DNA of 64,000 nucleotides from Octopus sinensis (GCF_006345805.1 NC_043010.1:39494001-39558000); one strand, 5' to 3'. Positions 8,343-15,849 are shown, numbered from the stretch's first letter. Translations and numbers: made by a program. Notes: generated by a model not told the origin, from the letters alone.

Positions 8343-10320
8343 TACAATGAAATTATAGTAATTTCGCATTTTCTTAAGAGTTTAGTATAGGGGTTTGTGA
8401 ATAAAATGAATAAACATGTAGACAAATCCAAGGGGAGGTAACTGATGATTGTTATTATTCGGGACAGGTGGTAACTGCTCATTTTGGGGGCAGGGTGTAA
8501 ATAAATATACAAAAGCTCAAAGGCTAAAATAGAAGGCTTAAATATTCACCGTGATATGTATGTGAACATGAATTAAAATGGTCATGCGTTCATATTTAGG
8601 CGTGTTCTGTATTTTTCGATAAATAAATTTTCCTTATTTAAACATCCATTTGCATAAAGTTTTCTTTGCGCTGGTAGATAAGTAAAACTGTGAAGTCTGT
8701 GTGACATTATCTGCACATCTCTCTATGTGTTCACTCAAAGAGAGTTTCTGAAACGCATAAACCAGGTTTTTATTATTGAAACATAAAACTTTATACTTGA
8801 GAATAATGATTTCCTATTTGACGACACCTACTATCCTCAAAAATGCGGAATTACGATGGTAACGTAAGCAGCCCTCGTGCTTGCGAACTTGATAAGGGAA
8901 TTCACGATATATGAAGTGTCAATGCAAAAATATGGACATCCGTTTCACCATTGTATAAGAGGGAACTGGAAAATATACTCGAATGACTGCTTTATCATTT
9001 GGACGGACACCATTGATAAATTTTTGGAATTCAAATCAATACTAAATAATATAAAACCTAACATTCAGTTTAGAATAGAATATAGCAAAGAACAGTCCTC
9101 TTTCTTAGATATTATGGTAAAAACTTTTTTACAACCAAATTGTAATTGACATTCATCATAAGCCAACGGACTCGAATCAATATCTTCTATTTAGCGCATG
9201 CCACCTGAAACATACCAAATGGAATATCCCCTTTAATTGAGCAAAAAGGATTTGTACAATAGTGTCTGGTGGAAAACCTCGGAACGTCTGTCACCACGAC
9301 ATCAGAATAACACTAACTGAAAGACAATACCCACCCTCACTTATAGACGATGAAATTAAACGTGCTAACACACTATGCATAAAAACACTAAGGGAGACAC
9401 CTCAAAACAATACCATATATATCACAACCATATATATCAACGCACAACCCTGACATACAACACTGTTGCACAAAATCTACCCATGCTCACTAGTGATCCG
9501 AAAATGAACAACATTCTGAAAAGACATAAATTCATCAAATGCGAAAAGCAACACAGATCTGACAAAGGCGAACCATTACATTACAACCAGGAAACCAATG
9601 GTTAAAAAATGTGGACGTCCAAACTGTAGAACATGTCACGAACCACAGGAAGGCTCGAAAGGAGAGAGCTTCACAATTGAAACCAACTTCACTTGTGCCT
9701 TCGAAAATCTAATTTATGTTATAACTTGTTCAGGTTGTAGACATAACAATATAGGACAGACAAAAATGGTACATAGACGGACAACTACAGTACAGAAGGA
9801 ACGGATCTGTTTACCACAGTATAGACAGATTCCTTTTATTGACCAGGGAGATGTGCAAGTAACATCCAAACACACTTCCCAGTTTTCCCCATCTACCAAT
9901 TTCTGTAAAAGAACGTCTAAATAAAGAAAATTTATTTATCGAAAACTACAGAACACGCCAATATATAAACGCATAACCAACTTTGATCTCAGTATATATT
10001 TGAACTCATGTTCACATATACATCATTGTAAATATTTATCTCACTATTTTAGCCTTTGAGCTTTTGTATATTTATTTACCCCAACCCTAAAATTGAGTAA
10101 TTGCCTCCCCCGACTCGAATAATAATGATCACCAATTATCTTCCCTCAGATTTTTCTACTTATTGAATCATTTCATTCTCAATCCCCTATACACAGCGTG
10201 GACTAAAATCTTAACAAAATACGAAATTACAATAATTTCAATGTCTTGATTAGCGAAAGCGAAACCGGTCGACAAACACAATATATCATATATTAAAAAT
10301 ATATTAAAACTATGTAAACT
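8343..10320 (+). mobile_element. Decayed Penelope-like element (Neptune-type), 5'-truncated, with an inverted copy of its 3' end at 8343-8745
   Basis: Broken RT motifs (FILENNDFLFDDTYY..CGITM; WKIYSNDCFIIW for W.RYLDD) and a GIY-YIG endonuclease with a Cys motif (KKCGRPNCRTC...NFTCAFENLIYVITCSGC..NNIGQT, 9598-9924). 8343-8745 is the diverged reverse complement of about 9830-10242. Confidence 0.88.
10242..10274 (+). ncRNA. Minimal hammerhead ribozyme relic at the Penelope 3' end
   Basis: TGTC-[TTGATTA]-GC GAAA GC-[GAAA]-CCG-GTC-GACA: stem I TGTC/GACA, palindromic stem III ACCGGT, GUC site. The core has two changes from CTGATGA. Confidence 0.7.
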
Positions 10321-10349
10321 GTGTACATTTTCTTTCTTATATTACCCAT

Positions 10350-12750
10350 ATCAACATATACACAAACAAAAACGCAAGCCAATCTTCATGAAAATGGCAG
10401 AGCTGAACAAATTAAAGGATGATAAAACAATAACAATGAAAGTGGCCGATAAATGGAGTGCAGTTGTCTGAATGGACACGGTGTATTATATAGCTCTAGT
10501 ACTATCCATATTAGAAGAAACAACATACTATGAAAATGTCCAACACTACAGTCAGCAGAAAATATTGAAAAACTTACAACCTATACGGAGACAGCCACAG
10601 ACATAATAATCAAGATACCTACTCCTAATGACCTCCTATTCAGATATATAATAACAGGTCCCGCATGCAACAACCACAACCGCCTCAGAAACTTTCTAGA
10701 TACCATCTGAAAACCATTCCTTTAGCATATCAAAAGCTTAGATATTATCATTCACCTGAAACAATAAATAAAAACATTCTACTAGTATCCTTCGATCTAG
10801 TCAACCTCTATTATATTATCCACTACAGCCTAGGAATAGAGGCAATCCAATTCTGGCCAGAGAATTACTCCAACGAATTTCCACACCGCATCAAAGCAGA
10901 ATTCGTAATAGGTGTGCTAAAATTTATCTGGGAGAATAACTTCTTCGCCTTCAAAGACAACTTCTATCGACAAAATTCAAGTGACACTAACGCGGACGAC
11001 AATGGCCCCTCCATTGCTAACCTAATCTTGGGATAATTAGAAATCAGCCTTTATCATAAGGTAATAGAAAAATGCGACAACGCATTCTCGCTCTACATAG
11101 AAAAAAACCGCTAGAGGTATCTCGATGTCTGCTTCATTCTTTGGTATGAAAGTATAGATAGAATTAAAGAATTTAAAGCACCTCTAAATGGACTTGACAT
11201 AAACATTCAATTTACGTTGGAATATAACCATCAACTTCCATTCCTCCATATTCTCATTAAGAAATCAAACAACAAATTAGAAACAGACATACACTATACG
11301 CCCACGAACTCCAAGCTATATCTACCATTAAATTCATGCCACCCCAGATACACTAGAATGAATATCCGCTTCAACCCGGCAAAATTAATTTTACTAGAGT
11401 TTCTAATACAAGCACCAAGGACACACGACTATATAAACTTAAGGATACATTCATCAACAGCAAATACCTATCATCATAAATTCATATAGGCTATCAACGT
11501 TTCTTATAACTCAATATCCACGAACTCAGACATTCCAAACCAAAGAGGGATTTACAGCCAAAAGCCCTACAATACATCTCCATACACGAACAATGAAGCG
11601 TTCGATACCATCCTCCAGAACATTCTTATACTAGAAAGGGACCACAGAATGAATCTAGTCCTCCAAACGCACACCATCATAAAGGGCAAAAAACAACCCA
11701 AGTCAATGAAAAGTCTCCTAACACAAGCCAAAGTACACTCGCCAACAACATTGAAGCCTTCAGTAAAAAACACAGAAGACTTAACTATGGTATGTACGTC
11801 ATCCTAATTGAGGGATCGGAGTTCTCCTTGAAACAGGGTCAAAGTTTTACAGACAGAAACAACTTCATATGTCCTTCGGAAACCATAAAGTATGTATTAA
11901 CTTACTCAGGGCTTTGAGAGCAATACATAGGCGAAACCAAAAACAGACTACGACAAAATTCGGGAATACAGACAAAAGAAAACGAATTTAGTGAACACAT
12001 CGACATTTTCACCACTACCGAACAACCCAACTTCAGATTTTCTCCTCTATAAATTCAGGGACGATGCAACCTATAATCAGCGCATTAGCAAAGAGTCATA
12101 TTTTATCGCAAAATATAAACCCTTTTTGAATATATCCACCTCAAATGACACTACTACAAGGGCCTTAGGATAATACCCAGGCAAATATTTAAAATATAGT
12201 CACAACGCATGAATTTATTCAGAACAATTCCATTCACTTTTACTATAAGCACAACAGATCATTTAACCAATTAAGAAAACTTTACTAATAGCCTACTACT
12301 ATCATACCATTCCCGTATTTTCCTTATACTTTCTCTTCTTTTCCTACTACCAACTCGTCCTCTTCATCTTCTTCTTCTTCTTCTTCTTCTTCTTCTTCTT
12401 ACTCTTCTTCTTCTTCTTCTTCTTTTTCTTCTTCCTTGCTTAAACAATCTAAATGCAGAACCCACATCCCTCATAAAAAGTATTTCTTGAGAGCTGCTAT
12501 TACCTGCCTACAAAAGTAAGAGAGAGAGAGAGGTAGAGAGAGAGACAGACAGACAGAGTAGAGGAAAATCTCCCACGTATTTGAAAACTATGGAAATATT
12601 TTTTAAAAAATTTATTTCATTTTTCCAGAATTTAATTGTTTTTCATGCATCACTCTAAGTTGAAAAAGTCGCCAAGACTGAAACCGCTACTAAAATGTTC
12701 TTCATGATAAAACTATTTTAGCATTTTCTCCCCTGTTCTATTTTCCTTAT
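10350..12750 (+). mobile_element. Second decayed Penelope-like element (RT, GIY-YIG remnant, 3' pseudo-LTR)
   Basis: NKNILLVSFDLVNLY (motif A), LKFIWENNFFAFKDNFYRQ, RYLDVCFILW, LPFLHILI..LETDIHYTPTNSKLYL..SCHP, and QYIGET near 11925; many stops and frameshifts. The 3' non-coding part (about 12180-12750) resembles about 62200-62770. Confidence 0.88.
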
Positions 12751-14342: not shown

Positions 14343-15131
14343 AGCCAAGTCGGAACACATATTTTCACGAGACATTTCTGTCCCTGCCTCGGCAATATCT
14401 GACCTAAAATTTTCAAATCATCGCACTCGCGCCAAATTTATCGGTAGCAAATAAATATAAGCCGCCGATTCCATTACGGAATTAACCAGAAAATTCATAA
14501 TTAATCAATATAGGGTGGCAAAAAATTTTGTAGAATTTTTTTGCCACCAGCGGCCTAGTGGGAAAAAAATTAAATAGTCATAGACCATTTTTAAGTTCAG
14601 TATCACAATCAAGGAACGGCCATAATAGGCCATTCACCCACTAGAAATAACAGCCAAAGCTTCAAGCCAAAGCCTGATTTAATTTAATCAGGTTAGTTTA
14701 CCATTAAACAGTAGATGAAACGGTGCATCGTATAAGATGAAACGGTGCATCGTACAGGGTAAATGTTTTTTAATTTTCTCCTGGTTTACGGCATTGATGT
14801 TATTTTGCGGTTGAAGCTTTGGCTGTTATTTCTAGTGGGTGAATGGCCTATTATGGCCGTTCCTTGATTGTGATGTTGAACTTAAAAATGGTCTATGACT
14901 ATTTAATTTTTTTCCCACTAGGCCGCTGGTGCACAAAAAAATCTACAAATTTTTGCCACCCTATATTGATTAATTATGAATTTTCTGGTTAATTCCGTAA
15001 TGGAATCGGCGGCTTATATTTATTTGCTGCCGATAAATTTGGCGCGAGTGCGATGATTTCAAAATTTTAGGTCAGATATTGCCGAGGCAGGGAAAGAAAT
15101 GCCTCGTGAAAATATCTGTTCCGACTTGGCT

Positions 15132-15235
15132 ATTTCTTACTGATGATTCTAAGGGCTATGGAAGATTGGCTGATTTAATTTAATCAGGTTAGTTACCATT
15201 AAACAGTAGATGAAACGGTGCATCGTATAAGAAAT
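15132..15235 (+). ncRNA. Type I hammerhead ribozyme, copy 3 (inverted arm)
   Basis: ATTTCTTA 15132-15139, CTGATGA 15140-15146, GAAA 15212-15215, stem III ACGG/TCGT, cleavage A at 15227, TAAGAAAT 15228-15235. A few 1-nt deletions in stem II. Confidence 0.85.
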
Positions 15236-15849
15236 TACAGGGTAATGTTTTTTAATTTTCTCCTGGTTTACGGAATTGATGTTATTTTGCGGTTGAAGCT
15301 TGGCTGTTATTTCTAGGGGTGAATGGCCTATTATGGCCGTTCCTTGATTGTGATGTTGAACTTAAAAATGGTCTATGACTATTTAATTTTTTTCCCACTA
15401 GGCCGCTGGTGGCAAAAAAATTCTACAAAATTTTTTGGCACCCTATATTGATTAATTATATATACATATATATATATATACAGACATATATATACATATA
15501 TATGTATACATATATATACATACGTACATACATATATATATACATATATATATACATATATATATATACAAATATATATACATATATACATACATATATA
15601 TCCATATAGGTATATATGCATACATATATACATACATATATTATATATATACATATATATATATATACATATATATACATATATATTGTACATACATATA
15701 TATAATTCCTTAAATCCTTAAAAATGTATTAGCCCGAAGGCCGCGGCCATGCTGGGGCACCACCGCTGTATAATATATATATATATATATATATATATAT
15801 ATATATATATATTATATATTATATTATATATATATATAATGTATATATA

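Follow-up and report, generated by a model that had tools for sequence, protein, structure and literature searches.

The 64-kb window analysed here (64,000 nucleotides of Octopus sinensis) contains a tandem hammerhead repeat with a unit of 488 bp, arranged as two inverted arms between TA-rich tracts. The question is how this array was inserted, and whether a Penelope copy in the same part of the window had a role in it. The case for any particular enzyme as the mover of animal retrozymes still depends on co-occurrence, on shared ribozyme type and on similarity of terminal repeats, and the mobilisation mechanism is described as still to be elucidated (Li et al. 2026, preprint 10.64898/2026.07.22.740005). 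Insertion footprints, namely the orientation of inverted junctions, the target type, the target-site duplication (TSD) and the end phases, provide an independent test of the enzyme for which existing assemblies suffice. The locus shows that this test is workable and which features are to be scored. Its features are as follows.

13426..13625, no strand: left TA-rich target tract (TRF)
13613..13627, plus strand: candidate TSD, left copy (flank comparison)
13626..14665, minus strand: left arm of the hammerhead array (488-bp unit), 2.13 units, 3' end leftward (TRF and unit alignment)
13748..13854, minus strand: type I hammerhead copy 2, cut after 13756 (motif scan)
14236..14342, minus strand: type I hammerhead copy 1, cut after 14244 (motif scan and folding)
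14666..14673, no strand: inversion junction, 8-nt insert (unit alignment)
14674..15459, plus strand: right arm of the 488-bp repeat, 1.6 units, 3' end rightward (unit alignment)
14713..14754, plus strand: 22-nt duplication and 10-nt deletion spanning the scissile bond (TRF and unit alignment)
15132..15235, plus strand: type I hammerhead copy 3, cut after 15227 (motif scan)
15457..15471, plus strand: candidate TSD, right copy (flank comparison)
15460..15704, no strand: right TA-rich target tract, no mirror image of the left tract (TRF and flank comparison)

The same repeat sequence is found in both arms; TRF gives a period of 488 with 2.1 copies at 13626-14665. Both arms were aligned to one 488-bp unit, in which phase 1 is the first base past the scissile bond. 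The minus arm runs from 14665 to 13626 through phases 67-488, 1-488 and 1-130, and the plus arm from 14674 to 15459 through phases 430-488, 1-488 and 1-235. The start phases of the two arms differ, and their outer ends, located 130 and 235 nt beyond the ribozyme cut, differ by 105 nt. Both ribozyme-sense 3' ends point outward into TA tracts, with microhomologies of 2 nt and 3 nt (chance of the pair ~0.03, post hoc). The head-to-head layout with outward 3' ends and the entry into TA tracts through AT microhomology, both described in the earlier note, are borne out by TRF and unit alignment. Its placement of the plus arm also holds, but not the end at 15457: the match to the unit extends to 15459, and 15457-15459 form the microhomology. 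Each substitution in the array is private to one copy (~0.8%), which fits a single insertion event. No second copy of the unit was found elsewhere in the 64-kb window. The array is best read as a single, recently inserted, non-autonomous hammerhead repeat.

The 8-nt insert at the junction is a templated duplication of left-arm sequence lying 13 nt upstream. The junction adjoins the stem II hairpin where the right arm starts; self-priming at this hairpin is possible, but is backed by at most 1-2 bases. In the scar at 14713..14754, the second copy of the duplication stops at the cut site, give or take a 2-nt microhomology (p ~0.02-0.04 for a scar at the scissile bond, post hoc), and the scar is a candidate template jump at the ribozyme cut site. 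Both scar and junction lie in the arm showing signs of poor base quality. The sole tandem double substitution in the array, 14600-14601, is located directly beside phase 130, the outer end being exactly two turns away (chance 0.004-0.02). The candidate TSD, 15 nt including and 10 nt excluding the microhomology bases, has the polarity expected of priming from both strands. Retrozyme TSDs, when present, should exceed 4 bp; the candidate, which would be 10-15 nt, lies in low-complexity flanks, where the chance of a direct repeat of at least 15 nt is 0.016. The TSD and microhomology tests share bases, and their p-values, like that of the scar, are post hoc and uncorrected.

The hammerhead of copy 1 has an 8-bp stem I, an intact C3-G8 core and a GUA site. 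Its stem II consists of a U.U pair and 4 bp, extended by a long hairpin to 68 nt in all, and its stem III is short with a palindromic loop. Three complete type I hammerheads are present, two consecutive in the left arm and one in the right (copy 3), in which the stem II extension has three 1-nt deletions. A relaxed hammerhead scan gave 7 matches in the window, compared with 0-3 in each of 20 block-shuffled windows. An Rfam search of the window gave no hammerhead at gathering or E-value thresholds, and its matches of TA repeats to microRNA models were rejected; a tRNA scan found none. The unit is non-coding, with a longest stop-free stretch of 42 codons and no blastx match to 385 fetched Penelope and LINE relatives. 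Its GC content of 36% is below the 45% limit used for retrozymes. The circular monomer is 60% paired and folds with z -4.7 (0/40 shuffles as good). The antisense strand folds as unusually, with z -5.0, and therefore folding does not show which strand is the RNA.

The unit thus has tandem type I hammerheads, at least two of them consecutive, in a non-coding, self-paired monomer of low GC content and of a few hundred bases, as is the case for non-LTR retrozymes. This supports its description as a retrozyme-like hammerhead repeat. Self-cleavage of the unit is a prediction, judged here by folding energies. By computed energies, helix III alone is nearly unstable (-0.2) and self-dimerises (-17.5 kcal/mol). 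The lowest-energy monomer fold hides the core, and the active-like fold is 3.3 kcal/mol higher, at 0.5% of the ensemble. Among predicted Xenopus retrozymes, 8 of 9 were without cleavage in vitro.

The inversion itself could be a sequencing or assembly artefact made by a fold-back or chimeric read, as the earlier note feared on account of the small deletions in the right arm. These are confirmed: 8 are found in the 786 nt of the right arm and 0 in the 1040 nt of the left (Fisher p 0.001). By comparison, the LINE of the window has only 2 frameshifts over ~3 kb; errors are thus concentrated locally in the right arm, which may have been assembled from few reads. However, a fold-back should mirror the left arm. 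The right arm carries 0/5 variants of either full left copy (0/10 private substitutions of the left arm), stops at phase 235 and not at 130, overrunning the mirror point by 105 nt, and enters a flank unlike the left one. Polishing could remove variants but could not shift the end point. In addition, base loss in the second arm is known for nanopore reads of true inverted duplications (PMC7229812), which would explain the right-arm deletions without a false join. A mirror fold-back was rejected, an artefact of any such kind is very unlikely, and the inversion is very probably genomic.

It is necessary to compare the array with the Penelope copies of the window, which are given below together with a third inverted element.

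8343..8749, minus strand: Penelope A, inverted 5'-truncated copy, GIY-YIG end and 3' terminal repeat (alignment)
8751..10285, plus strand: Penelope A, 5'-truncated dead copy, RT, CX4CxxC linker, GIY-YIG and 3' terminal repeat (alignment)
10242..10274, plus strand: Penelope A tail, decayed minimal hammerhead that differs from a U3-A8 core by one change (relaxed scan and folding)
10310..~12720, plus strand: Penelope B, second dead family member between Penelope A and the array (alignment)
60117-60438: third head-to-head hammerhead-like element, TA-rich site

By alignment, Penelope A has the head-to-head form given in the earlier note. The minus-strand 3' fragment, running from 8749 to ~8343, aligns with 9825-10250 and is joined to a plus copy that starts at 8751, within RT; the junction lies at ~8741-8753, and the previously given position of 8745 is acceptable. 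The inverted copy runs out in (TA)n shortly before the hammerhead core, and the 3' terminal repeat of the plus copy has an extra tail of ~35 nt. The left flank is clean (TA)n; on the right, the AT-rich stretch is short and degenerate. The two arms are only 80% identical (316/393 ungapped columns, K2P 0.23), and 3 stops and 6 frameshifts are found across 400 aligned codons. The arm differences are spread 12/9/11 over codon positions, with 4 synonymous and 14 non-synonymous changes among the single-change codons of 44, a count that excludes codons differing at all three positions and includes some mis-registered codons. This fits neutral decay after one old event, and an origin of the arms from different active subfamilies was rejected. 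The hammerhead motif of Penelope A (10246) does not fold better than shuffles. Penelope B, which is absent from the earlier note, has a decayed U3-A8-type minimal hammerhead near 12660-12690, which likewise folds no better than shuffles; no inverted partner was found for Penelope B.

Pfam gave no RT or GIY-YIG match on three Penelope fragments of the window, and their identity was established via relatives; a search of representative proteins contributed nothing more. Both A and B align along relatives P0001 and P0003, with RT followed by a C-terminal GIY-YIG; P0001 matches RVT_1 and GIY-YIG, both slightly below Pfam cut-offs. The CX4CxxC linker lies in frame 9520-9924 of Penelope A and is found in 119 of 120 relatives. 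A CX2-5CxxC linker before GIY-YIG is common to Neptune, Nematis and Naiad (PMC8557442), and judged by its linker Penelope A appears to be of Neptune/Nematis type.

The array had been described as adjacent to Penelope A and as sharing its insertion geometry. In fact, the plus-strand Penelope B and ~900 bp of simple repeats intervene. The unit has no homology to Penelope A or B (best local score 41 vs shuffle maximum 49); a 13-nt word shared with the start of Penelope B, seen by eye, was treated as chance. Divergence is ~0.8% within the array and K2P 0.23 between the arms of Penelope A, a difference of more than 10-fold, and the Penelope hammerhead is different and minimal. With no shared terminal sequence and different ages, the array is not a passenger of Penelope A or B. 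Since Penelope A is dead, more than 10 times more diverged, without shared sequence and separated by Penelope B, the adjacency is not causal and a link between the two is not supported. Penelope A and B are not the source of the array: they occupy a target of the same kind but arrived earlier. The third element, at 60117-60438, resembles a solo pLTR pair, and all three inverted hammerhead-bearing elements in the window (3/3) are head-to-head at TA-rich sites. A G3-C8-core motif was read by eye at 60190-60252, where the exact scan gave no match; its fold has z -1.96, with 10/200 shuffles as good.

We propose, with a probability of about 0.6, that the array is a non-LTR retrozyme inserted by two-ended target-primed reverse transcription, probably by a Penelope-like enzyme encoded outside the window. 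From the observed anatomy, hammerhead fold, non-mirror arms and candidate TSD of this one locus, we infer transcription, cleavage, an RNA intermediate and the enzyme in the following scheme. A source array would be transcribed into multimeric RNA, which the hammerheads, probably acting as dimers, would cleave to 488-nt monomers; these may form circles. The TA tract would be nicked on both strands, 10-15 nt apart, by the RT/GIY-YIG protein of a young Penelope-type family located elsewhere in the genome. From each 3'-OH a separate cDNA would be primed on RNA that is circular or an uncut multimer, from phase 130 and phase 235, and the cDNAs would pass the cut site for 2.1 and 1.6 units. The two cDNA ends would then be joined head to head with short templated duplications, and fill-in would yield the direct repeat, the candidate TSD.

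Penelope-like elements are known for inverted 5'-truncated copies, microsatellite targets, 8-10-bp TSDs and junction palindromes (PMC3846280, PMC8557442). On AT-rich DNA, one Penelope enzyme studied in vitro nicks both strands and extends them, with fixed internal start sites (PMC11167929). Retrozymes co-occur with, and resemble, Penelope terminal repeats, and Octopus vulgaris has 31 recently active Penelope-like families. The claim that a Penelope-like RT/GIY-YIG wrote the array stands as the best single explanation, but without a link to this Penelope and with a geometry that is not diagnostic. The end points called arbitrary in the earlier note are only two, and the fixed start sites in vitro speak against that term. 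Fixed ends and TSDs, which it took as a refutation of a Penelope origin, do not serve as one, as both occur in Penelope inserts (PMC3846280). Priming by the purified anole enzyme needs no homology (PMC11167929), and thus AT microhomology is no Penelope-specific mark. Against our explanation, the end offset of 105 nt is larger than the usual Penelope-like tail of 30-40 nt (PMC8557442). No partner element for the unit was found in the window, by homology to Penelope A or B or by blastx to the 385 relatives. It is possible, though doubtful, that the array records the reaction itself, with Penelope-type RT at both nicks, two fixed internal starts (130, 235), a jump onto a self-cleaved 3' end (the scar) and re-initiation at phase 130. 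If the family has that footprint genome-wide, it would be direct evidence of which enzyme and which form of template animal retrozymes use.

The head-to-head geometry is compatible with LINE twin priming or DNA repair too. An APE- or REL-type LINE could have reverse-transcribed retrozyme RNA by twin priming, with the same layout and a TSD. Some LINE clades target microsatellites, a near-intact LINE is found at 22458-26264 of the window, and RTE, CR1, Dong-R4 and Tx1 families were recently active in O. vulgaris. Among human L1 inserts, 18-22% have 5' inversions, with TSDs of 5-25 bp, and geometry thus fails as the discriminator that it was taken for (PMC12016303). However, neither arm has a poly(A) or repeat tail or a LINE-like 3' end, both passing mid-unit directly into TA tracts, and the unit does not match the LINE of the window. 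With a single linear RNA as template, the inverted cDNA is expected to begin close to where the first one stops (median overlap 12 bp, PMC12016303), whereas the array phases are 300 or 168 nt apart (130 vs 430, 235 vs 67), and single-RNA twin priming was rejected because the phases do not fit. Moreover, short non-autonomous passengers of L1 hardly ever carry inversions (Alu 0.02%, PMC12016303). A LINE as the writer is quite unlikely, and the same degree of doubt applies to a DNA-level event without an RNA step, in which a TA-tract break was patched by template-switching from another satellite copy (microhomology-mediated repair). Short templated duplications and microhomologies are typical of repair synthesis, and the array has them at its junction, with microhomology at both ends. 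Such repair does not predict a TSD with both ribozyme-sense 3' ends outward, nor the scissile-bond scar, and with 0/10 private variants of the left arm the right arm is no copy of it.

It is rather unlikely that the unit is the pLTR of an autonomous Penelope family located outside the window, the array being a doubly 5'-truncated head-to-head insert with tandem pLTRs, made by the same enzyme with no independent RNA replicon. Of 57 Xenopus retrozyme families, 24 matched known repeats, nearly all Penelope termini; tandem hammerheads occur in axolotl Penelopes, and the likeness of 60117-60438 to a solo pLTR pair points the same way. However, the unit is without coding remnant, and its full C3-G8 core, 8-bp stem I and real helix III are unlike the minimal motifs of metazoan Penelopes and of the neighbours.

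Retrozymes and their link with Penelope are already in print, while this insertion footprint was not found in the main texts of the literature examined. A literature search on octopus hammerhead ribozymes found no cephalopod retrozyme, though supplements may list cephalopod motifs. The array may be the first cephalopod example, with an unusually long helix II missed by Rfam. It is one circumstantial case of an expected result.

In L1 twin-priming 5' inversions (PMC12016303), as in the array, two cDNAs from opposite strands are joined internally, with a TSD, which is a candidate in the array. However, one L1 arm is poly(A)-primed and the arms are mostly different parts of the RNA, while both array arms repeat the same unit and have no tail. 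The Chlamys non-autonomous elements such as MRC1 (PMC8557442) are likewise non-coding passengers of Penelope-like enzymes with multicopy head-to-tail inserts. They belong to green algae, and they resemble their autonomous partner at the 3' end, unlike the array, for which no partner was found in the window. With Neptune/Nematis-type Penelope-like elements (PMC3846280; PMC8557442) the array shares the inverted 5'-truncated head-to-head copy, microsatellite target, candidate TSD, palindrome near the junction and unequal ends; Penelope A fits this type fully, with its tail of ~35 nt. Unlike them, the array encodes no protein, and no sequence is shared with Penelope A or B. Penelope A ends at its own ribozyme, whereas the array ends 130 and 235 nt past the ribozyme cut.

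Metazoan non-LTR retrozymes, which occur in molluscs (mussel), are described in PMC7229834 and by Li et al. (2026 preprint 10.64898/2026.07.22.740005). The array unit of 488 nt is longer than the 150-450 bp of the former and within the 51-972 bp of the latter. Its helix II is extended to 68 nt. The two-armed, inverted form is unmentioned in the main texts of both papers, whose supplements may list it. The array resembles these retrozymes as a tandem non-coding repeat with a type I hammerhead per unit, GC below 45%, a structured monomer and a weak palindromic helix III. The U.U at the base of helix II is also found in axolotl HHR_Amex2.

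The array is built of a 488-bp hammerhead repeat, detected as a period at 13626-14665 by TRF; its inverted partner reaches 15459 by self-BLAST, which found no further copy of the unit in the window. With phase 1 set at the first base after the ribozyme scissile bond, the minus (left) arm covers phases 67-488, 1-488 and 1-130 and the plus (right) arm phases 430-488, 1-488 and 1-235. At 14666-14673 the 5' ends are joined through 8 nt that repeat neighbouring left-arm sequence, next to the stem II hairpin, and the 3' ends run into TA tracts with microhomology of 2 and 3 nt (joint chance 0.03). 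The geometry described in the earlier note, head-to-head arms with 3' ends pointing outward into TA tracts, is confirmed with small corrections, and the reading that the note gave to it finds partial support. A 15-nt direct repeat flanks the array (13613-13627 and 15457-15471; 10 nt minus the microhomology bases) and is equalled or bettered in 1.6% of 20000 random flank pairs. The right arm carries, 60 bases from its start, a scar at the scissile bond: a duplication of 22 nt and a deletion of 10 nt lie astride the bond, and one jump ends on it with 2-nt ambiguity (chance 0.02-0.04). The sole tandem double substitution in the array, 14600-14601, adjoins phase 130 and is separated from the outer end of the left arm by exactly two units, with 14601-14665 identical to 13625-13689; it could be either a re-initiation scar or a family variant. 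The four probabilities for the microhomology, direct repeat, scar and double substitution are post hoc and uncorrected, and each feature is a lead, not proof.

A descriptor scan located three complete type I hammerheads, of which two are on the minus strand and the third is on the plus strand. All three have an intact core, an 8-bp stem I, a GUA site and a U.U pair, after which a 4-bp stem II runs into a 68-nt extension. Rfam recovered none of the three in the array, probably because of this extension. The unit is non-coding (GC 36%), and its circular form is more stably folded than all 40 shuffles; the antisense strand likewise outdoes its own shuffles. By folding energies helix III is marginal by itself and self-complementary, and the monomer is predicted to favour a core-burying fold by 3.3 kcal/mol. 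Both predictions would be consistent with the dependence of cleavage on dimers that PMC4209133 describes for type I motifs of animals.

The inversion had been feared to be a fold-back read artefact. The left arm carries 10 private substitutions (5 per full copy), and none of them is found in the right arm in either register; the right arm has 4-5 of its own, overshoots the mirror point by 105 nt and continues into a different flank. A fold-back read is therefore rejected. All eight small deletions in the array fall in the right arm (8/8, p 0.001); for comparison, a LINE nearby shows two frameshifts over about 3 kb. Because nanopore reads are documented to lose bases in the second arm of genuine inverted duplications (PMC7229812), we read these deletions as probable sequencing error upon a real structure. 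At base level the right arm is provisional, its scar included. An artefactual inversion is the least probable of the alternatives to be weighed.

The neighbouring Penelope A, a dead element at 8343-10285, consists of two copies:

from 8751, plus strand: 5'-truncated plus copy
about 8741-8753 down to 8343, minus strand: 5'-truncated inverted copy

These lie head to head as had been noted, with an 11-nt palindrome (8744-8754) at the junction; such palindromes are likewise described in rotifer Penelopes. The RT, CX4CxxC linker and GIY-YIG domains suggest a Neptune/Nematis-like element, an assignment by domains and linker. The plus copy extends about 35 nt further at its 3' end, and this tail carries a decayed minimal hammerhead, in agreement with the published Penelope tail signature. 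Over 400 aligned codons Penelope A has 3 stops and 6 frameshifts. The distance between its arms is K2P 0.23, and the changes affect the codon positions evenly. Divergence is about 11% per arm, versus 0.8% for the array; with the octopus calibration (distance 0.09 = 25 My; PMC13282606) the ages would be roughly 30 and 2 My. Penelope B (10310-about 12720), which lies between Penelope A and the array, is also dead (8 stops, 6 frameshifts), and no likeness of the 488-bp unit to either Penelope was found. The adjacency that the earlier note had linked to the array thus reflects at most a common target preference. Penelope B-type 3' ends at 12537-12729 and 62562-62748 are 72% identical, each following a (TTC)n tract and each containing a minimal hammerhead core of the U3-A8 type, which is on record (PMC4209133).

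The non-coding segment 60117-60438 has two head-to-head arms of about 120-135 nt, about 95% alike, with an additional 64-nt tail on the plus arm. Both its ends are flanked by TA tracts, with a low-complexity direct repeat of 11-12 nt, and the minus arm holds a minimal hammerhead-like motif, read by eye, whose core looks to be G3-C8 (fold z -1.96). It looks like a solo pair of Penelope terminal repeats. A lone minimal hammerhead with a canonical core, 37477-37512 (+), lies downstream of an (ATA)n tract, with no inverted partner and no match to the fetched proteins. Six hammerhead-bearing elements were counted in the window (Penelopes A and B, the array, and those at 37477, 60117 and 62682). Three have an inverted partner, head to head in 3/3 (1 in 8 under random orientation), and this layout looks routine for hammerhead-bearing elements in the host genome. 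Minimal hammerhead pairs on opposite strands, 100-700 bp apart, are also described (PMC4209133).

The window is repeat-rich animal DNA, across which a tRNA scan and Rfam gave no match. The relatives that carry a name, for the Penelope as for the LINE proteins, are from Argonauta, oysters and mussel, which points to a molluscan host, probably an octopod. A near-intact LINE at 22458-26264 (+) encodes a CCCH-finger ORF1, endonuclease and RT, with 2 frameshifts against an intact relative at 89% identity; weaker related fragments occur at 55957-56103 and 15877-16287. The tandem array 4172-5024 has units of about 170-220 bp, each closed by a (TA)n tract, and the motif scans found no hammerhead in it. 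A 184-bp repeat, which we take to be SINE-like, is present both as tandem runs and as scattered copies (16527-16910, 32096-32631, 40171-40705); 32096-32351 and 32350-32631 are both co-oriented with the run near 40 kb that they match. A 102-bp unit is repeated 2.6 times with TA spacers at 59486-59751, and imperfect short palindromes occupy 52378-52442 (65 nt) and 53647-53718 (72 nt).

We propose, with a probability of about 0.6, that a Penelope-type protein wrote the array by two-ended target-primed reverse transcription of retrozyme RNA. The template would be multimeric or circular, and the protein would derive from a young family not present in the window. The anole Penelope enzyme (PMC11167929) nicks and extends on both strands of AT-rich DNA, which supports the head-to-head geometry; in vitro, ribozyme cleavage is dispensable. 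However, it starts at fixed internal RNA sites, which undercuts the arbitrary end points described in the earlier note, and it does not need primer homology, so that microhomology at the arm ends is uninformative as a mark of it.

Penelopes are known to show head-to-head inversions, TSDs, junction palindromes and trans-mobilisation by their terminal repeats (PMC3846280), and retrozymes derived from such repeats are described in a preprint (10.64898/2026.07.22.740005). The unit could itself be the terminal repeat of an autonomous Penelope outside the window; this is unlikely, and yet it ranks first among the alternatives. Slightly less credence is given to LINE twin priming, L1 inversions being described (PMC12016303), and the same low credence to DNA repair synthesis, for which the short microhomologies might be cited.

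The term "inverted" is absent from the main text of PMC7229834 and, in the available text of the preprint and of PMC7761336, occurs in a reference title only. The titles and abstract openings listed by literature searches, supplements and subscription papers aside, reported no inverted retrozyme array and no cephalopod retrozyme. The footprint of the array points to a cheap genome-wide test of retrozyme mobilisation. Non-LTR retrozymes are known, a mussel family included, with Penelopes as candidate mobilisers (PMC7229834, PMC7761336); a bias towards microsatellites is also described, as are Chlamys elements that are non-autonomous and arranged in tandem (PMC8557442). The footprint of the array fits the leading hypothesis, which is already in print.
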